From IMG/VR virus record IMGVR_UViG_2778261177_000009, positions 1 through 30,130 of that record: a DNA stretch of 30,130 bases; one strand, given 5' to 3'. Source of the stretch: a virus (taxonomy: Duplodnaviria; Heunggongvirae; Uroviricota; Caudoviricetes). Both the position numbers and the translations under genes were made by a program. The notes beneath the pieces are model-generated. The model had not been told where the DNA came from, searched no databases, and worked only from the letters and a program-made list of their open reading frames with translations. Positions within the stretch are counted from its first letter, which is position 1. Every line of letters begins with the position of its first letter. This document shows positions 5,871 to 26,009 of the stretch, piece after piece.

Positions 5871-5973
5871 GTTAAATCTCCAGATAGTCGCAGCACCCGT
5901 TGCGCCGCATATCCGGTTATTTTATTACCTGAAAAACCACATATGGATAGATAGACTGTGAATTCGAACAGAT

Positions 5974-5990
5974 ATTACCTTTCAGGTAAT
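5974..5990. promoter_or_regulatory. TTACC-N5-GGTAA palindrome, site A (ATTACCTTTCAGGTAAT)
   Basis: Perfect 7-3-7 inverted repeat in the gap between the tailspike start and the LexA-box gene; member of a six-site family. Confidence 0.5.
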
Positions 5991-6026
5991 TTTAAAAACG
6001 TGCTGGATAGCAAATAAATTATTTGA

Positions 6027-6046
6027 TACTGTATAAATATACAGTT
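6027..6046. promoter_or_regulatory. LexA (SOS) box TACTGTATAAATATACAGTT
   Basis: Matches the E. coli LexA consensus TACTGTATATATATACAGTA at 18 of 20 positions with intact CTGT-N8-ACAG core; ends 20 nt upstream of the ATG at 6066. Confidence 0.7.
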
Positions 6047-6065
6047 ATTGCATGGAGAAGATAAG

Positions 6066-6323
6066 ATGCAGCAGTATCACTATCCACTGGAAGAGGGATT
6101 TACCGAAAGGATTCACACGCCGGGAGGCGTCAGGTCACTGGTGGAGGGATCGCACTTGATGAAATTACTCCGGGATCTCGATAAGGATGGATTTAATGTC
6201 GATGGCCCACTTGCCGAACTGACTGCACTGATTAACTACGTCACCAGCTCACAGATGTCTATGCGGGATCTGCAAACACATCTCGACTATTGTGCCGAAC
6301 AATTACGAAAACAAACCCGGTAA
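6066..6323 (+). CDS. small SOS-regulated protein, candidate antirepressor-type module
   Basis: First in-frame ATG with GGAG RBS (the ORF track starts at a TTG at 6048); LexA box just upstream; about 40 percent identical by eye over about 75 aa to the C-terminal domain of the AntA-domain protein at 7474..8130. Confidence 0.6.
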   Translation: MQQYHYPLEEGFTERIHTPGGVRSLVEGSHLMKLLRDLDKDGFNVDGPLAELTALINYVTSSQMSMRDLQTHLDYCAEQLRKQTR

Positions 6324-6327
6324 ATTT

Positions 6328-6350
6328 AAAGGCCGCAAGAGCGGCCTATC
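6328..6350. terminator. hairpin terminator between convergent genes
   Basis: Stem GGCCGC / GCGGCC with loop AAGA, T-rich sequence on both sides; overlaps the stop of the minus-strand gene 6346..7074. Confidence 0.45.
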
Positions 6351-7074
6351 GTTTCGCTTTGTGCTCATCCCAGCACGTTTTGCACCATGCCATTAAACCA
6401 TCCGCATTTTGATTATTAGGGTAAAAGCTGGTTCGTTTTCTGCGGACATTACAAATTGGGCACCACTTCATATGGCGTGTATTCTTTGGGCCATCGAGAC
6501 ACCTTGCACACCACTTAGTCAATCCATCTGGATTTTTTGACGATTTCCTGAATTTTTCATATGGAAGGTTTATTCTGCATCGCAAGCACTGCTTGCTACC
6601 ACTTGAGACTCTATTAGCTGATTCTTCTTTTGGCGGCGATACAGAAGGTATTCTTGCTGGCTCTGATACTGCCTGAGGTGCTTTTTTAGATGACTGAGAC
6701 GATATGTCATCACCAGGGAATCTTCCATGATATGCCGGAGGCGTTGACACTCCAGGTGGAAGCTCAGCTGTAAACGGCTTTGGCTGAATCAGTTGCCTCT
6801 CTTTTGCTAACTCCTGCTGTTTATAATATGTCTGGATTACCGCACTATCATAAGCAGGAGGTGCGGAAATATTAGGCGCATTACCTCCAGTTTTTTGAAA
6901 CTGAGTAGAGGTGTGTTCTATCACCTGTGTACGATTAATCGTTATCTCTCCATCTTCGGTCTTTATCGTTTTGTTATGATTAACGACCGTACGATCAGAG
7001 ATCTTAGTCTTGTTCTGGTTGATAACGTAAATAATCACCGCAACCACACCAACAACTATCCAGAAAACTTCCAT
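6346..7074 (-). CDS. membrane-anchored protein with two tandem C-x2-C-x22-C-x2-C zinc-ribbon repeats
   Basis: GAGGA RBS; N-terminal TM helix (VFWIVVGVVAVIIYVI), Pro/Ser-rich linker, then two repeats CLRC..(22)..WCARC and CPIC..(22)..WCKTC sharing a DGL-x2-WC core. Confidence 0.6.
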   Translation of the reverse strand: MEVFWIVVGVVAVIIYVINQNKTKISDRTVVNHNKTIKTEDGEITINRTQVIEHTSTQFQKTGGNAPNISAPPAYDSAVIQTYYKQQELAKERQLIQPKPFTAELPPGVSTPPAYHGRFPGDDISSQSSKKAPQAVSEPARIPSVSPPKEESANRVSSGSKQCLRCRINLPYEKFRKSSKNPDGLTKWCARCLDGPKNTRHMKWCPICNVRRKRTSFYPNNQNADGLMAWCKTCWDEHKAKR

Positions 7075-7093
7075 TGCTTTTCCTCACAATAAC

Positions 7094-7110
7094 ATTACCT
7101 TAAAGGTAAT
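7094..7110. promoter_or_regulatory. TTACC-N5-GGTAA palindrome, site B (ATTACCTTAAAGGTAAT)
   Basis: Perfect palindrome 20 bp upstream of the start of the minus-strand gene 6346..7074; includes a TACCTT that could be a plus-strand -10 preceded by TTGCTT. Confidence 0.5.
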
Positions 7111-7186
7111 ATCTTGCTTTCAGGTGATCAAGCGTTAAACGCAACCAACCAAATACGGTTGATTTTAATATTTCTTCGTGTTTATC

Positions 7187-7204
7187 ATTACCTTTGCGGT
7201 AAAT
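7187..7204. promoter_or_regulatory. TTACC-N5-GGTAA palindrome, site B2 (ATTACCTTTGCGGTAAAT)
   Basis: Second copy 93 bp downstream of site B, in the leader of the antirepressor-like gene. Confidence 0.45.
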
Positions 7205-7292
7205 TTACATCGCACTCCTCTTGTGCCATAGTAATCGGGCACTGGCAAAATCCAGTGCCGGGATTGGTCTCCCGGATTACTAAGTGGCGCAT

Positions 7293-7316
7293 ACCACGCC
7301 AGACGTGGTTTTTTTA
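7293..7316 (+). terminator. intrinsic terminator inside the 5' leader of the antirepressor-like gene
   Basis: Stem ACCACG / CGTGGT with loop CCAGA followed by TTTTTTT; preceded by another stable hairpin (GGCACTGG / CCAGTGCC, 7238..7259). Confidence 0.45.
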
Positions 7317-7473
7317 TGCGTATAGCACAGTCATGCCAGAATTATGGTGGGCTGAATGGGGGTCCGAAAGGACGCCGGTACCACTTAGGCCGGTAAGACC
7401 AACTCCGTTCAGTTCACCACCATCTGATTGGTCTCAGCGGTGGTGATGTAATTCGCTAAGTGGAGACACCATC

Positions 7474-8130
7474 ATGAACGCTCAACTCATCCCCGTATTC
7501 AACGGCACTATATCTAACGAAACAGCCCTACTTTGTAATGCCCGCGATCTGCACGCTTTTTTAGGTGTTAAAAAGGTGTTTGCAGCATGGATTACAAATC
7601 GCATTTCAGAATACGAATTCATTGAAAATCAAGACTATATTTTGCTTTCCAATTTGGGAAAGCAAACATCTGGTAGAGGCGGCCACAACCGCAAAGAGTA
7701 CCACCTCACCCTCGATACAGCCAAAGAGCTGGCAATGGTCGAGCGTAACGAAAAAGGTCGCCAGGTGCGACGCTACTTCATTGAATGCGAGAAACGTTTA
7801 AGACAACAAGAAACAAAAGTGGAGAACGTCTTGTCAGGCTTCATGCCCGCCATTATGGAGGCGATCAAGCTGGAAGACAAAAAAGAATACAGCGCCCCAC
7901 TGAAGCCCGGCTACCGCAGCCTGATTCACTCGCCGTCTGGTGTTCTCGGCCTGACGGAGAACTCACTGCTGATGAATCTGCTGAACCAGTTACAGGACGA
8001 CGGGCACGACGTATCGGGCGCGGCGGCGGAACTGACCACCATGTTCTGCTACATCGTCGGTGTGAGCAAATGCCTGCGTAATATCCAGACACACGCGGAA
8101 TACATCAACGACAAGGCAGGGTTCTTCTGA
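7474..8130 (+). CDS. phage antirepressor-like protein, AntA-type N-terminal domain plus C-terminal domain paralogous to 6066..6323
   Basis: GGAG RBS; N-terminal region ([33 protein letters not shown] ... [35 protein letters not shown]) matches the AntA/AntB antirepressor domain from recall; C-terminal about 80 aa aligns with the LexA-box gene product. Confidence 0.7.
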
Positions 8131-8138
8131 CTGGCGGT

Positions 8139-8160
8139 GGCACAGGGATGTGCCTTTAAA
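8139..8160 (+). terminator. hairpin terminator after the antirepressor-like gene
   Basis: Stem GGCACA / TGTGCC with loop GGGA followed by TTTAAATAATT. Confidence 0.4.
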
Positions 8161-8201
8161 TAATTCTGTACAGATTGCAGACTGGGGGTGAATAGCGTAC
8201 T

Positions 8202-8218
8202 ATTACCTTAAAGGTAAA
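8202..8218. promoter_or_regulatory. TTACC-N5-GGTAA palindrome, site C (ATTACCTTAAAGGTAAA)
   Basis: Core 15-mer identical to site B; 42 bp upstream of the start of the two-gene operon at 8260. Confidence 0.5.
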
Positions 8219-8259
8219 CCTGTTTTTATTTTATACCTGTAACTTACCGGAGATTAAAG

Positions 8260-8586
8260 ATGACAAAACTTGGATTCGTGATGAGAGGTCCGGTAAGAAG
8301 CGGAACTCATGCAAAGCGTAGCAAGAGTCGTATTTTTACTGGTAAGGTTGTAGCACGTAAATCAGCTATTGGCTCGTTCAATAGTGAAAATGCGGCATTG
8401 CGCCATATTTTTATCAGCACAAAGCCAAGAGCATCCGCTGATGTGCATACAATGTCTATTCCTATCACAAAGAGTATAAAGCGGATAAAAAAGCTCTCAT
8501 CTGCAGAATCAAAAGAGATATCTTTCCGCCAGCTTAACTCATTAGAAACGCATATGAAGGAAGAGGAATTCGATGTTTTTGAGTGA
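8260..8586 (+). CDS. small basic protein, first gene of a two-gene operon (candidate antitoxin/regulator)
   Basis: GGAG RBS 7 nt upstream; Lys/Arg-rich N-terminal half and acidic C-terminus (EEEFDVFE); overlaps the downstream gene by 14 nt; AT-rich. Confidence 0.45.
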   Translation: MTKLGFVMRGPVRSGTHAKRSKSRIFTGKVVARKSAIGSFNSENAALRHIFISTKPRASADVHTMSIPITKSIKRIKKLSSAESKEISFRQLNSLETHMKEEEFDVFE

Positions 8587-9085
8587 GTATAGCGGGAAGG
8601 TTATACCTACTGGTGAGTTTAAAACTGATGACTTTCTGATTTCGCTAAAAGATGCTTTTAAACAACACTGGCGTCATGGTCATCATCCTGATCTGGGAAA
8701 AGATACTCTTTTTGAAAGACCAGACGAAGTATTAGGTTTCCATCTCAGAAAGGTTCATGTCAATATTGGTGAATATGCATCATATTCATACTCATGTACT
8801 GAACAGTGTTGGGATGAGTGGTCATACGGATTGATTGATGAACAAGGAAATTACAGGCCAAAACCAACCAGTAACGCATATCTCATATATGCAGTCAATG
8901 AAATAAGAGATGCAGCCTTACTAGCTTATTGGGACCCGCCCGCACACACCAAAGCTAACGCAAAAGTTTGGATGGATTCCGTATTGAATTTCACAAAATT
9001 ATTTCATGAACGAACGAATACAGCTCCACTTAGTAGAAATGTTTATCCGTGGGATTATTCGTACAAATCCAAAAAGCCTGCATAG
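8573..9085 (+). CDS. hypothetical protein, weak collinear similarity to YafO-family toxins (candidate toxin or abortive-infection effector)
   Basis: AGGAAGAGGAA RBS inside the upstream gene; by eye three collinear blocks resemble E. coli YafO (GKDTLF vs GRDALY; RKVHVNI vs ERVAHIH; AYLIYA..AALLAY vs AHLVYC..AWLLIA); His-rich motif HWRHGHHPD; AT-rich. Confidence 0.5.
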   Translation: MFLSEYSGKVIPTGEFKTDDFLISLKDAFKQHWRHGHHPDLGKDTLFERPDEVLGFHLRKVHVNIGEYASYSYSCTEQCWDEWSYGLIDEQGNYRPKPTSNAYLIYAVNEIRDAALLAYWDPPAHTKANAKVWMDSVLNFTKLFHERTNTAPLSRNVYPWDYSYKSKKPA

Positions 9086-11999: not shown

Positions 12000-13802
12000 T
12001 TAACCTCTCAAGAAACACGCCACAGCAACATCAAACAGGCTGGAATCCTGTATTGCCTGCTCACTTTCCCTGTTCGCTTCATCCAGTACTTCACGCGCAC
12101 TGCGCGATTGTGGATTACCATCATCATCCAGCACGGTGATTATCATGTCCGGAGATTCAAGCAGCGAGTCTTCAGCTATACGCAGATCAATATCTCCTGC
12201 CGGATCTGCCGTCATTTTTTGTTCTGTCTGTTGCAATATCTTACCGGGCTCAAAAGGAGCTACTTCGTCTGGCGTCCTGACCTCTGCTGTTTTATAGAAT
12301 GAAACAGCCTGAGCATTAAGTTCACTTTCTGCCTGCTGTCGTCGTGCCAGTTCTGCTCGAGCTTCAAAAAACTGACCGCCAGGCTCATGCGGTGCCAACG
12401 CGTTACGGGAAAATTCCAGGCGCTCTTGTGCCTGCCGGATTCGTTGGTCAATATCGCGAAGTCTGACCTGTTTATCTGATCGAGCACGAGACAAAGCTTT
12501 ACCGCTACCGGTTGGCTCTTCTGCAAGAATTTGTGCGCGCTGTTCAGTGAGATTTTCAATAATTCGTTGGCTATTAGCGATTTCAGACTGGTAAACCTGT
12601 CTATCGCCACGCGGCAAAAGCTGCGCGGCCTGTTCTTCAAGCAACCGATTTTCTATAGCGCGCGCCGTTACTCCATCATCTACAGATGACAGAGCCTCAT
12701 TAACTGCCTGAGACAGCAGACTCTTGCGCCCAGGAATTTCACTGAAAGATGCAGACTCAACAATGCTGGCAACGTCTACAGGTCTCCCCTGGCTAACATC
12801 AGACATAGCTTTTCGCAGAGCCTGAATGTGAGAATTGCGCGAAAGCACGTTGATCGGCACGCCGGGCGCAATATCAATTTCAGCATGATGAGCGGCATTC
12901 GCCGCCAGTGCAGCATCAACATCAACTGGTGAAAAATTTGGTGCGCTTGTAGACTCGCCGCGAGAGTTCATAAATCTGCCGACACCACCAAACGCCACCC
13001 CAAGAACAGCATCAATAGCAATTGCCTGTCGATCCAACACATCATACTGGTTAGCCATTTCGCTATAGCCACCATCACGAAGCGTTTTTGCAGTAAGCCC
13101 ACGCTGTGCCATACCGAACGCAATATTTGTACCTGCGGCATAGGCAATATCTGGCGTTGCACGTACTGCTGTTGCTGCGGCGCGTCGCACTGAACTTTCA
13201 CCCGTCCGCGCAAGCTGGGCCGCTACACCTTCCGCCAGCGCACCACCAGCACGTAACCCGAGGCTCATAGGGATCAGTGTTCCGGCACCAGCAGTAATGC
13301 CCTGCACTAATCCCGCTTCCTGCGCCGTCCTGAAATCAACACCCTGTTCTGTCAGCCGTTCAAACTCAGAAAAACCCTGTAGCGAAGTTACCGCCGCTGC
13401 ACCTCCGACAGGACCACCGAGCGTTGTACCGACAACAGCCTGCCCGCCCATATCGAACAACCCATAAAGAACCTGCCCGGCGGTTCCGGTTGTCGCGGCA
13501 TCAGGCGTCAGCCGCTTAACCTGCTGCTCTGCTAGTTTTCTCTGCTCGGCAATGTATGAAACTGAAGTATCATTGAGCGAGGTGTTTTCGTTAACAAACT
13601 GAGCAATCGGGGATACGATTTTATCCATCCCTGCCCATAGCAACTGATCTGGCTTTGCCACCAGCCCGGAGTACAAACCAGACAATGCCGCTCCTACAGC
13701 ATTGTCGAAAAAACCAACATCGCTGTTAAAGCCAGCTGGATTTGATGCTGCTTCGTCAAGCTGCTGATTCTGGTTTACTGGATTAAGGCCAAAGTAACTC
13801 AT
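12000..13802 (-). CDS. internal virion / ejection protein (Gly/Ala-rich)
   Basis: 600 aa with a Gly/Ala-rich central region; start overlaps the stop of the upstream 837-aa gene. Confidence 0.55.
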   Translation of the reverse strand: MSYFGLNPVNQNQQLDEAASNPAGFNSDVGFFDNAVGAALSGLYSGLVAKPDQLLWAGMDKIVSPIAQFVNENTSLNDTSVSYIAEQRKLAEQQVKRLTPDAATTGTAGQVLYGLFDMGGQAVVGTTLGGPVGGAAAVTSLQGFSEFERLTEQGVDFRTAQEAGLVQGITAGAGTLIPMSLGLRAGGALAEGVAAQLARTGESSVRRAAATAVRATPDIAYAAGTNIAFGMAQRGLTAKTLRDGGYSEMANQYDVLDRQAIAIDAVLGVAFGGVGRFMNSRGESTSAPNFSPVDVDAALAANAAHHAEIDIAPGVPINVLSRNSHIQALRKAMSDVSQGRPVDVASIVESASFSEIPGRKSLLSQAVNEALSSVDDGVTARAIENRLLEEQAAQLLPRGDRQVYQSEIANSQRIIENLTEQRAQILAEEPTGSGKALSRARSDKQVRLRDIDQRIRQAQERLEFSRNALAPHEPGGQFFEARAELARRQQAESELNAQAVSFYKTAEVRTPDEVAPFEPGKILQQTEQKMTADPAGDIDLRIAEDSLLESPDMIITVLDDDGNPQSRSAREVLDEANRESEQAIQDSSLFDVAVACFLRG

Positions 13803-25932: not shown

Positions 25933-26009
25933 GTGGCATTAGCTCAGTCGGACAGAGCAACCGCCTTCTAAGCGGTTGGTCGCAGGTTCGAATCCTGCAT
26001 GCCACGCCA
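25933..26009 (+). tRNA. tRNA-Arg (anticodon UCU), phage-borne
   Basis: Hand-folded cloverleaf: acceptor GTGGCAT/ATGCCAC, D-stem GCTC/GAGC, anticodon stem ACCGC/GCGGT with loop CTTCTAA, T-arm GCAGG-TTCGAAT-CCTGC, discriminator G and encoded CCA. T-arm matches E. coli argU as recalled. Confidence 0.85.

Follow-up and report, generated by a model that had tools for sequence, protein, structure and literature searches.

An IsrK-like leader RNA and a c4-type antisense RNA precede the antirepressor gene of an epsilon15/phiV10-like E. coli prophage

The leader in front of the antirepressor gene ant is a copy of a known phage RNA immunity module, which consists of an IsrK-like terminated leader and a c4 antisense RNA. 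It lies in the window, that is, the whole analyzed stretch of 30,130 nucleotides, and is carried by an E. coli prophage of the epsilon15/phiV10 type. With a probability of about 80%, positions 7188 to 7473 make up the regulatory leader of an immI-like "anti-immunity" operon that is built like the c4-icd-ant operon of P1 and P7 and in which c4 blocks the translation of ant. The family membership, the structure, the complementarities with their co-variation and the overlap with the ribosome-binding site are directly supported by this analysis. Knowledge of this class goes back to 1990 (P1/P7), and Hershko-Shalev et al. examined it in Gifsy-1 in 2016 (PMC4825925); the module found here is real, functional-looking and ordinary, and the known mechanism is unchanged.

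The gene behind the leader encodes a protein that matches Pfam AntA (PF08346, 91.7 bits) and PHROG 377, "anti-repressor Ant" (2.5e-66), and PGAP named it "antA/AntB antirepressor family protein." In the Uetakevirus ZX5, overexpression of the homologously placed antirepressor pushes the phage towards lysis, and the paper describing this makes no mention of the element (PMC9782041). No RNA is annotated at the leader in RefSeq or at the corresponding place in the phiV10, TL-2011b and ZX5 records. The neighbors of the locus are a tail fiber gene, a membrane protein and a YafO-like toxin, and 482 of 5,426 complete E. coli genomes contained similar DNA; 12 genomes reached at least 99% identity. The elements of the locus are as follows.

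7095-7109, no strand assigned: operator-like palindrome TTACCTTAAAGGTAA (site B), in the gap that separates the leader from the divergent gene 6346-7074
7159-7188: second promoter candidate, TTGATT-18-TATCAT, from a consensus scan
7188-7202, no strand assigned: operator-like palindrome TTACCTTTGCGGTAA (site B2), with 2 nt between it and the -35 hexamer and its center near -44 of the predicted start
7204-7232, + strand: promoter-like site, a consensus match only (TTTACA 7204-7209, 17-nt spacer, TG 7224-7225, CATAGT 7227-7232)
7239-7315, + strand: IsrK-type short leader RNA (hairpin 1 7239-7258, hairpin 2 7259-7274, linker, intrinsic terminator)
7264-7270, + strand: upstream target b1, UUGGUCU, which can pair with c4 7396-7402 and sits in the hairpin 2 loop
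7280-7287, + strand: upstream target a1, CUAAGUGG, which can pair with a' in c4 (7381-7388)
7293-7315, + strand: intrinsic terminator, ACCACG-CCAGA-CGUGGU, then a U run
7340-7424, + strand: c4-type antisense RNA gene, with two hairpins enclosed by a long helix, and ACC(A) as its tRNA-like 3' end
7381-7388, + strand: recognition site a', CCACUUAG, carried in its loop by the second hairpin of c4
7396-7402, + strand: recognition site b', AGACCAA, single-stranded, on the 3' side of the second hairpin of c4
7428-7434, + strand: downstream target b2, UUGGUCU, complementary to b', some 6 nt beyond the 3' end of the mature c4 (C7421/A7422)
7456-7463, + strand: downstream target a2, CUAAGUGG, overlapping the ant Shine-Dalgarno GGAG 7462-7465, 8 nt before the ATG
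7474-8130, + strand: ant, AntA-family antirepressor, 218 aa, ATG at 7474

The c4 RNA and its target sites

A preliminary description of this DNA had listed a second palindrome, a stable hairpin, a terminator and a further 157 nt in front of ant. Each of these is present at, or within one base of, the positions given there. The 157 nt (7317-7473, up to the ATG at 7474) contain a c4 RNA that had been overlooked and that is the key element of the leader.

The C4 model of Rfam (RF01695) matched the + strand over its entire length (positions 1 to 87 of 87) with 61.2 bits, as opposed to a gathering score of 45, and our own model R1 scored 91.6 bits. The folding and covariation analyses that the preliminary description had called for both came out in favor of a structured RNA. 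The predicted fold of c4 has an energy of -41.2 kcal/mol (z = -5.5 relative to dinucleotide shuffles, 0 of 200 being as stable), and the leader from 7226 to 7480 reached z = -5.0, again with 0 of 200 dinucleotide shuffles as stable. In an alignment of 74 distinct homologues, which was itself fitted to the model, 99.5% of cells were paired, and 21 of the 27 pairs showed compensatory changes, as opposed to 5 to 9 in slid controls.

Placed by homology with the annotated 77-nt c4 of P7, the mature RNA probably extends from G7346 to C7421 or A7422, a length of 76 to 77 nt. Its ends are conserved: G is found at +1 in 73 of the 74 homologues, CC at the 3' end in 72 and an A at the next position in 52. 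The sequence prerequisites for processing, an AU|GG 5' end and an ACC(A) 3' tail, are thus present and conserved. Hartmann et al. reportedly found in 1995 that the 5' end of c4 is made by RNase P.

Two short stretches of c4, a' and b', are complementary to one pair of sites upstream and another downstream of it (the a/b letters were taken from the GenBank annotation of APSE-7). The composite pattern UUGGUCU-N(5-35)-CUAAGUGG has exactly two matches on the + strand, at 7264-7287 and 7428-7463, and one reverse complement, which lies inside c4; these three matches compare with 0.01 expected. The perfect complementarities are short, 8 and 7 nt. The whole-molecule duplex energies of c4 and its targets only modestly beat those of shuffled sequences (19 to 53 of 500 were as good), and nested duplex folding opens c4. 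Since duplex energies were not informative, the length of the perfect complement was used instead, with non-cognate c4 RNAs as controls. When the c4 of each of 91 distinct loci was compared with the sequences flanking it, the longest perfect complement averaged 7.4, 8.3, 7.0 and 7.0 nt for a1, a2, b1 and b2, respectively, versus 4.9, 5.0, 5.2 and 5.1 nt for the non-cognate controls.

The recognition sites co-vary with both sets of targets in about 90 related viral loci. Among 101 c4 matches, the a' loop occurred in 51 different forms and b' in 16, all of them accompanied by fitting targets whose positions are fixed; the c4 alleles of phiV10 or TL-2011b, for example, carry UCCUUUUAG as a' and UACGCCAA as b'. 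The a2 match stops 6 to 13 nt short of the start codon and reaches into the Shine-Dalgarno GGAG in 72 of 90 related loci, the downstream starts having been called anchored on a2 (13 GTG calls at -1 are probably wrong). The control of the antirepressor at the RNA level that had been proposed from the first look at this DNA is supported.

The terminated leader, its promoter and the operator-like palindromes

The short leader RNA matched the isrK model of Rfam (RF01394) over its full length (positions 1 to 77 of 77) with 67.7 bits, above the gathering score of 50 (E = 1e-13), and a match to c4-a1b1 (RF03163) fell just under the cut-off. The stable hairpin of the preliminary description belongs to this leader; it pairs GGCACTGG (7238-7245) with CCAGTGCC (7252-7259) over 8 bp around a 6-nt loop. 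In 41 related leaders the positions of the hairpin and of the terminator are conserved, with compensatory changes, which affect 5 of the 7 pairs of hairpin 1. The related loci were fetched by a pattern that fixes part of b1 (CCGGGNTTGG), so the diversity of the b sites is under-sampled and the conservation of hairpin 2 is partly imposed.

The terminator was detected independently of the isrK match and is a real and conserved part of the leader. Its stem (7293-7309) consists of 6 bp, 4 of them G-C, closed by a 5-nt loop, with a predicted energy of -7.6 kcal/mol. The seven T that had been reported after it occupy 7309-7315, and the first of them is able to pair in the stem. Among relatives its position is conserved and its sequence is variable. 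Being weak, the terminator is probably leaky, and its strength is compatible with read-through. As for the small RNA of about 200 nt that had been suggested for this region, the prediction of a small RNA stands, whereas a single molecule of that size gives way to two elements of about 77 nt, the leader RNA (7239-7315) and c4 (7340-7424).

The predicted transcription start, near 7239, coincides with position 1 of the isrK model, and a -10-like sequence (CATAGT, TATAGT or TATACT) is conserved 6 to 7 nt before hairpin 1 in the 41 related leaders. The promoter scan as a whole returned as many sites as in shuffled sequence, i.e., a chance level. The palindrome next to the promoter, site B2, has the form TTACC-N5-GGTAA. 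Six exact copies of this form are found in the window versus 0.5 expected, two copies lie in the cI/cro-like intergenic region, and the prophage contains at least 14. Site B2 is kept at the same place in phiV10 and TL-2011b, with its 5-nt spacer inverted in phiV10. It is probably bound by the HTH repressor of the prophage, and the location of its center near -44 also fits activation instead of repression. No LexA box was found at the leader promoter, and good boxes occur elsewhere. The candidate for the prophage repressor, a protein of 194 aa (WP_000836290.1), has an HTH_3 domain and no peptidase S24 domain; such a repressor would not cleave itself, which makes its inactivation by an antirepressor plausible.

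Several open reading frames in the leader were considered as genes and rejected. The 110-codon frame at 7114-7446, which starts with TTG and which the preliminary description had rightly taken for spurious, has no Shine-Dalgarno sequence and no Pfam match and is frame-shifted in TL-2011b and phiV10. In TL-2011b, whose DNA is 86% identical, the terminator differs by a 1-nt indel; because of the resulting frameshift, the homologous ORF (91 aa) ends in an unrelated C-terminal part. The 37-codon tail of the same frame, from the ATG at 7333, was rejected along with the whole. An orf45-type coupling ORF was not retained either: the frame from the AUG at 7344 stops after 3 codons and that from the AUG at 7356 after 10, at a stop that falls inside the a' loop. 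Across 79 loci the ORF from the conserved AUG spans 3 to more than 400 codons and is therefore not a conserved coding feature.

Related systems and alternative explanations

The closest layout is that of P1 and P7. In the P7 record, in which the C1 operator, the 77-nt c4, icd and ant are annotated, the arrangement equals that of the window position for position, save for the icd-like ORF. The order common to P1/P7 and the window is operator, promoter, a pair of hairpins with b1, a1, terminator-like hairpin, c4, b2 and a second a site, a2, over the Shine-Dalgarno sequence of the first ORF. In P7, GATTGTGAGG precedes the icd ATG, which places a2 over the ribosome-binding site of the first ORF, as in the window. 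Also shared are the location of c4 on the strand of its target gene, the same three-helix fold, the recognition of two sites and the residence of specificity in a' and b'. In P1, the direct target of c4 is icd, and ant is repressed through translational coupling and polarity. Here, by contrast, the first ORF after c4 is the AntA antirepressor itself, without an intervening icd-like ORF or an icd-to-ant coupling step, so the coupling part of the P1 mechanism cannot apply as such. The presence of icd after c4 is a feature of P1/P7 and not of the RNA family. Across relatives, the genes downstream of c4 are of antirepressor type (AntA, Bro-N, ORF6N, KilA-N and Rha). Of 77 distinct ORFs downstream, about 22 have only 57 to 81 aa and take the place of icd; since one representative showed no more than a marginal similarity to P7 Icd (E = 0.004 over 18 residues), they were not called icd. 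The window further differs from P1/P7 in its host element, an integrated epsilon15/phiV10-like podovirus prophage as opposed to a P1-like plasmid prophage, in its operator, a TTACC-N5-GGTAA palindrome rather than an asymmetric 17-bp C1 operator, and in the score of the isrK model, which is above the cut-off here and below it in P7 (43.7 bits). The recognition sequences also differ, implying a different immunity specificity. The experimental precedent for c4 in P1/P7 is summarized in PMC12197685 and PMC8198154.

The same two RNAs occur in the same order before a Bro-N antirepressor-type gene in the APSE phages of Hamiltonella (LR794151; PMC7313666). There, a' and b' are annotated at the same places of c4, and the DNA is 72% similar to the window, whereas the alleles of a' and b' (GUCCUUGUUAG and AGUCUCAA) and the domain family encoded downstream are different. 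Rouil et al. (2020) did not recognize the upstream a1/b1 in isrK and noted a match in a distant polymerase gene (PMC7313666).

The IsrK-orf45(STnc1160)-anrP locus of Gifsy-1 resembles the window in having a short terminated RNA, a read-through mRNA and a c4-like element before an antirepressor gene, and there, too, part of IsrK is complementary to part of c4 (PMC4825925). The effect shown for the short RNA in Gifsy-1 is activation, and the function of c4 (STnc1160) is unresolved there (PMC4825925). One could accordingly suppose that the long transcript is silent through pairing of IsrK with c4 in cis, that short IsrK opens it in trans, that ant is coupled to an orf45, and that the module mainly serves to activate Ant. 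Besides the high isrK score, this account would explain why b1 and its flank (7259-7270) are complementary to the b' region of c4 (7396-7407) at 10 of 12 positions, a pairing that corresponds to helix b-I of Gifsy-1 (G28/G31 with C162/C159), and why the orf45 AUGs, 107 and 119 from the IsrK start, align within 1 nt with those at 7344 and 7356, the alignment resting on the numbering in PMC4825925. We consider it unlikely: with the orf45-like frame closed after a few codons, translational coupling through orf45 is not available here, and the ORF is not conserved in length among relatives. In the minimum-energy fold of 7226-7480, IsrK and c4 form separate domains, and the target of the c4 loop lies on the ant Shine-Dalgarno sequence itself, which distinguishes the window from Gifsy-1 and makes a coupling ORF unnecessary. 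Nor is an antQ-type antiterminator gene evident beside the locus. What survives of this account is the idea that short IsrK may titrate c4 as a decoy, which we keep in the preferred reading, repression of ant translation by c4.

P4 CI and N15 CB act by premature transcription termination. If the c4-like RNA worked in this way, it would bind a1/b1 (or a2/b2) on the nascent transcript and cause attenuation at 7293-7315 or downstream. Like c4, CI with seqA/seqC of P4 and CB of N15 are small RNAs from the leader of their own operon with complementary sites on both sides (PMC3632133); IsrK/C4 have been described as structural homologues of P4 seqA/CI RNA, and the N15 antirepressor is controlled by a small processed RNA (PMC3632133, PMC4825925). 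Within the window, a1 ends only 5 nt before the terminator stem, an intrinsic terminator separates the upstream targets from c4 throughout the family, and a putative weak pairing of UGGCG (7285-7289) with CGCCA (7297-7301) could rival the terminator and would become available once c4 binds. With just 5 bp, however, this candidate antiterminator is short, and it was not found to be conserved, whereas the conserved overlap of a2 with the Shine-Dalgarno sequence is a signature of translational control, to which the sequence here would point in contrast to P4 and N15. Termination as the main mode of control is thus very unlikely; it could occur in addition to blocking of the ribosome-binding site. 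In P22, the sar RNA comes from the strand opposite to ant and shows full complementarity to the ribosome-binding region of that gene. The preliminary description had drawn an analogy with it, and sar likewise keeps antirepressor synthesis off in a temperate enterobacterial phage. The analogy fails in its particulars: no sar match was obtained with Rfam at E up to 10 in 6000-9000, minus-strand promoter- or terminator-like sites are absent from 7111-7473, and neither arc or mnt genes nor a signal for an opposite-strand transcript are present. All elements here are on the ant strand, and the RNA would act via two sites of short complementarity. P1/P7 c4 and Gifsy-1 IsrK are the appropriate analogues. 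A sar-like system, a plain 5' untranslated region with a chance terminator or a small protein-coding gene might have been entertained for a region that is long and structured and contains a 110-codon ORF; with an ORF that matches no family and is frame-shifted in TL-2011b, and with two Rfam families above their gathering scores and showing covariation, we find all three hardly credible.

A model for the control of the antirepressor

From this arrangement we infer the processing of c4, the direction of regulation (repression), the decoy role of the leader RNA and the control of the promoter by a repressor. Transcription would start near 7239, from a promoter that abuts the operator-like palindrome, and most transcripts would probably end at the weak terminator (7293-7315), yielding an IsrK-like RNA of about 77 nt that carries b1 and a1. 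Transcripts that read through would contain the tRNA-like c4 RNA (about 7346-7421), which, by analogy with P1/P7, where RNase P makes the 5' end, would be cut out of the leader. Its a' and b' would then pair with a2 and b2 on the same or on other ant mRNAs. Because a2 overlaps the Shine-Dalgarno sequence, c4 would block ribosome binding, and Ant would not be made; in its absence the repressor would stay active, which would amount to a sequence-specific secondary immunity.

Since the IsrK-like RNA has both target sites, it could titrate c4 in the manner of a decoy, like short IsrK in Gifsy-1, and with such a role the balance between termination and read-through would set the switch. By analogy with Gifsy-1, where this was shown (PMC4825925), read-through of the terminator would decide the amounts of c4 and of ant mRNA; the attenuator that had been suggested for this region holds in this sense only.

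A more far-reaching interpretation, which is possible but which we regard as doubtful, combines a self-contained RNA ratio switch with possible activation by the repressor, a large combinatorial code of specificity and an arms race. Without icd and without an open orf45, a single promoter would give the decoy (a1/b1) and, by read-through, c4 together with its target, and the output of Ant would be set by the efficiency of the terminator and by differing stabilities of the RNAs. A repressor bound near -44 might activate the promoter and thereby keep c4 high in lysogens. Family-wide, at least 51 a' loops and several b' alleles reassort freely, and on one viral contig there are four tandem c4-ant cassettes, each with its own address. 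This diversity of specificities, together with the tandem cassettes, suggests an arms race between co-resident prophages over the control of antirepressors.

The module accounts for an otherwise puzzling gap of 360 nt in the window, and its reading as a c4-type leader shows by what probable means antirepressor synthesis is held off in this prophage. The recognition code, with its two sites, allows predictions of cross-protection and cross-induction among prophages.

The leader of ant and its two structured RNAs

An Rfam scan of the region upstream of ant, the AntA-family antirepressor gene at 7474-8130 (+), returned three matches on the positive strand: isrK, C4 antisense RNA and c4-a1b1. The features of the leader are as follows.

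7114-7446, 110-codon ORF with a TTG start
7226-7278, positive strand, c4-a1b1 match (39.9 bits, just under the cut-off)
7239-7315, positive strand, isrK match (67.7 bits; gathering score 50)
7264-7270 and 7428-7434, b1 and b2 (UUGGUCU), both complementary to b'
7280-7287 and 7456-7463, a1 and a2 (CUAAGUGG), both perfectly complementary to a'
7340-7424, positive strand, C4 antisense RNA match (61.2 bits; gathering score 45)
7381-7388, a' (CCACUUAG), loop of the second c4 hairpin
7396-7402, b' (AGACCAA), single-stranded in c4

The preliminary description of this leader had pointed to two palindromes, a hairpin and a terminator 157 nt ahead of the RBS, and had taken the 110-codon ORF to be spurious. 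The palindromes are present (7095-7109 and 7188-7202), as are the 8-bp hairpin at 7238-7259 and the terminator (stem 7293-7309, T run to 7315), with 157 nt separating the latter from the ATG at 7474. The ORF is indeed spurious: it had no family match, and its C-terminal part is changed by a 1-nt indel in TL-2011b. The folding check proposed at that time found the leader far more stable than shuffled sequence (z = -5.0). Hairpin and terminator are real, being IsrK-type hairpin 1 and its terminator, but the 157 nt hold a c4-type RNA that had been missed. A sar-like antisense system, the analogy offered earlier, was rejected as a reading of the leader, as was a plain UTR.

Among related leaders, 5 of the 7 pairs of IsrK hairpin 1 covary, in line with the proposed covariation check, and a terminator hairpin with a T run occurs in every case, its sequence differing from leader to leader. 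A -10-like CATAGT or TATAGT lies 6-7 nt upstream of hairpin 1, which supports a transcription start near 7239. The terminator is weak, with a predicted energy of -7.6 kcal/mol. The 14 nt directly 3' of it (7316-7329, ATGCGTATAGCACA) are near-invariant in the window, TL-2011b and phiV10, and the adjoining terminator stem differs among the three; ATGCGTATAGCACA might act either as a signal for processing or as a second promoter element, cf. P2c4 of P1. The IsrK-to-c4 leader of related loci falls into two length classes, of ~112 nt and ~152 nt, with a1 at ~-56 and ~-95 relative to c4, respectively; the longer class mostly precedes small ORFs of 62-65 codons.

The c4 RNA folds into a 17-bp closing helix enclosing two hairpins (-41.2 kcal/mol, z = -5.5), and by homology the mature form would extend from G7346 to C7421 or A7422 (76-77 nt). 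The arrangement UUGGUCU-N(5-35)-CUAAGUGG was found only at 7264-7287 and 7428-7463, plus its reverse complement in c4 (3 matches versus 0.01 expected). The downstream copy of CUAAGUGG, a2, overlaps the GGAG Shine-Dalgarno sequence of ant (7462-7465). When 7423-7477 was folded alone (predicted -18.6 kcal/mol), GGUCUC of b2 paired with GGAGAC of the Shine-Dalgarno region; this predicted pairing may be allele-specific or a coincidence, since other b alleles in the family are unable to form it.

Recognition alleles among related loci

Related loci were fetched by scanning IMG/VR with a segment conserved in the upstream hairpins, and a covariance model built from four c4 sequences was used to search 100 sources (the window and 99 loci). 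This search found 101 c4 copies, nearly all just downstream of the upstream hairpins. Across 74 distinct sequences the c4 structure was 99.5% paired, with both-side changes at 21 of the 27 pairs versus 5-9 with slid partners, counts that are biased towards the structure by the fitting of the alignment to the covariance model. The ends are tRNA-like: G at +1 in 73/74, CC at the 3' end in 72/74 and A as the next nucleotide in 52/74. RNase P processing has been reported for the c4 RNA of P1 and P7, and by analogy the conserved ends would fit the same processing here.

The 101 matches carried 51 a' loops and 16 b' variants; b-site diversity is under-sampled, because part of b1 is fixed in the pattern used for fetching. 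When 91 distinct loci were compared with their own flanks, each c4 matched at fixed positions. The longest perfect complement averaged 7.4, 8.3, 7.0 and 7.0 nt at a1, a2, b1 and b2, respectively, as opposed to 4.9, 5.0, 5.2 and 5.1 nt for non-cognate c4 RNAs. In 72 of 90 loci, the a2 match ended 6-13 nt upstream of the start codon, into the Shine-Dalgarno sequence. The a' of the window was found elsewhere beside b' ACGCCAA, and its b' beside other loops; judged from these sequences, a' and b' undergo reassortment. The genes that follow c4 in the family encode AntA, Bro-N, ORF6N, KilA-N or Rha proteins, or are small ORFs of 57-81 codons.

One IMG/VR contig (L089, 2347-4998, minus strand) contains four tandem c4-type RNA genes at intervals of ~850 bp. 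No two share an a' loop, three b' alleles occur among the four, and each gene has matching targets and is followed by an ORF of ~177 codons. On sequence grounds, these form an array of c4-antirepressor cassettes, each with a different address.

The prophage, its probable operators and Ant

Positions 7075-7480 are 100% identical to the E. coli MB31 chromosome, and 482 of the 5,426 complete E. coli genomes contain similar DNA. The window starts within yfgH/yfgI, followed by late genes of the prophage, whose remaining part reaches an integrase adjoining guaA, the attachment site for phiV10, epsilon15 and ZX5 (PMC9782041). With TL-2011b (86% over 92% of the query) and phiV10 as its nearest phage records, the prophage is classed as epsilon15/phiV10-like. 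At the leader, no RNA gene is annotated in RefSeq or in the phage records, the sole entry in that of phiV10 being a 'putative rho-independent terminator'. The prophage also carries a tRNA-Arg gene (anticodon TCT, 25933-26009), located between its packaging and early regions.

The palindrome TTACC-N5-GGTAA occurs in six exact copies in the window (5975, 7095, 7188, 8203, 25596 and 28777) versus 0.5 expected. The other arm holds 10 copies with at most one mismatch versus 0.3 expected; counted together with the flank, six of these are exact, including two that also belong to the six of the window, and four have one mismatch. In L126, the DNA with the remaining prophage part, copies lie at 13170, 13232, 13944, 13992, 14329, 16275, 16337 and 18959. 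The cI/cro-like intergenic region, between the gene for a 194-aa protein with an HTH_3 domain and a small divergent gene, holds one exact copy and another with one mismatch; the palindrome thus most likely serves as the primary repressor's operator. Copies are spread across the entire prophage and also lie upstream of several accessory genes, a many-operator regulon that recalls P1 C1. At the leader promoter, the copy at 7188-7202 directly adjoins the -35 hexamer; it is kept in phiV10 and has its parallel in Op(c4) of P1 and P7. Being centred near -44, it would be compatible with either sign of control.

No S24 self-cleavage domain was found in the 194-aa repressor candidate, and antirepressors are for this reason probably the route to prophage induction. 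In ZX5, the antirepressor encoded at the homologous position favoured the lytic cycle when overexpressed (PMC9782041).

An 85-aa ORF (6066-6323, ATG at 6066) shares 42% identity with Ant residues 137-210, and PHROGs 450 and 15539 are common to both. A consensus LexA box, CTGTATAAATATACAG, lies ~20 nt upstream of it (6029-6044), itself preceded by a second CTGT-N8-ACAG (5956-5971) and a repressor-type palindrome (5975-5989). By its sequence, the ORF looks like a separate SOS-controlled small antirepressor with the Ant C-terminal domain. Directly downstream of ant, overlapping genes at 8260-8586 and 8573-9085 follow the palindrome copy at 8203-8217. PGAP assigns the second to the YafO-family type II toxins, with a weak Pfam match, and the two are possibly a toxin-antitoxin pair carried as cargo. 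On the minus strand inside ant, a promoter-like TTGTCT-17-CATAAT (7880-7852) and, ~80 nt on, a weak terminator-like hairpin (7771-7757) would delimit a putative antisense RNA of ~95 nt; these signals are probably a coincidence, since the promoter scan was at chance level.

Proposed control of ant in comparison with P7 and Gifsy-1

We propose that leader transcription would begin at ~7239 and that the weak terminator would end most transcripts, yielding the IsrK-like RNA. Read-through would produce c4, presumably excised and stable, which would pair with b2 and a2 and cover the Shine-Dalgarno sequence, so that no Ant is made. The IsrK-like RNA would be able to titrate c4. The sequence comparisons show family membership, structure, complementarity, co-variation and overlap with the ribosome-binding site; c4 processing, the sign of regulation, the role as decoy and the function of the operator are inferred.

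The P7 record, which annotates the C1 operator Op(c4), a 77-nt c4 RNA, icd and ant1/2, has the same layout part for part. The second upstream hairpin has UUAGCAG in its loop, a sequence that recurs directly after c4; GAUUGUG follows ~10 nt beyond the first copy, then a terminator-like hairpin with a U run, then c4; and GAUUGUGAGG lies over the Shine-Dalgarno sequence of the first ORF. The main difference is that this first ORF is icd in P7 and ant itself in the window.

In Gifsy-1, isrK-orf45-anrP is transcribed from the IsrK promoter, and a share of the transcripts extends past the terminator. Pairing of mid-IsrK with the 3' portion of 'orf45' makes this long RNA translationally silent, short IsrK supplied in trans switches translation on via orf45 coupling, and a stable processed RNA, STnc1160, lies at the position of c4 (PMC4825925). 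The cis pairing has a counterpart in the window (7259-7270 with 7396-7407), and AUGs at 7344 and 7356 correspond in position to the two of orf45. In the window, stop codons close this frame after 3 and 10 codons, and the length of the ORF from the orf45-like AUG varies across the family. Translational coupling was ruled out for the window on these two grounds, and the closed frame disfavours Gifsy-type activation by way of a coupled ORF. The decoy part of the Gifsy-1 model is plausible by analogy, since the short RNA has the same sites as the mRNA target. RNA-dependent premature termination, as in P4 and N15, is possible in addition to c4 pairing at ant.

The class is already well known from P1/P7 c4, P4 CI, N15 CB, Gifsy-1 IsrK and an annotated pair in APSE phage. 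The copy in the window is an unannotated member, with its own specificity alleles, in an epsilon15/phiV10-like prophage; it would act on ant directly, with neither icd nor orf45 in between, an arrangement common in the family.
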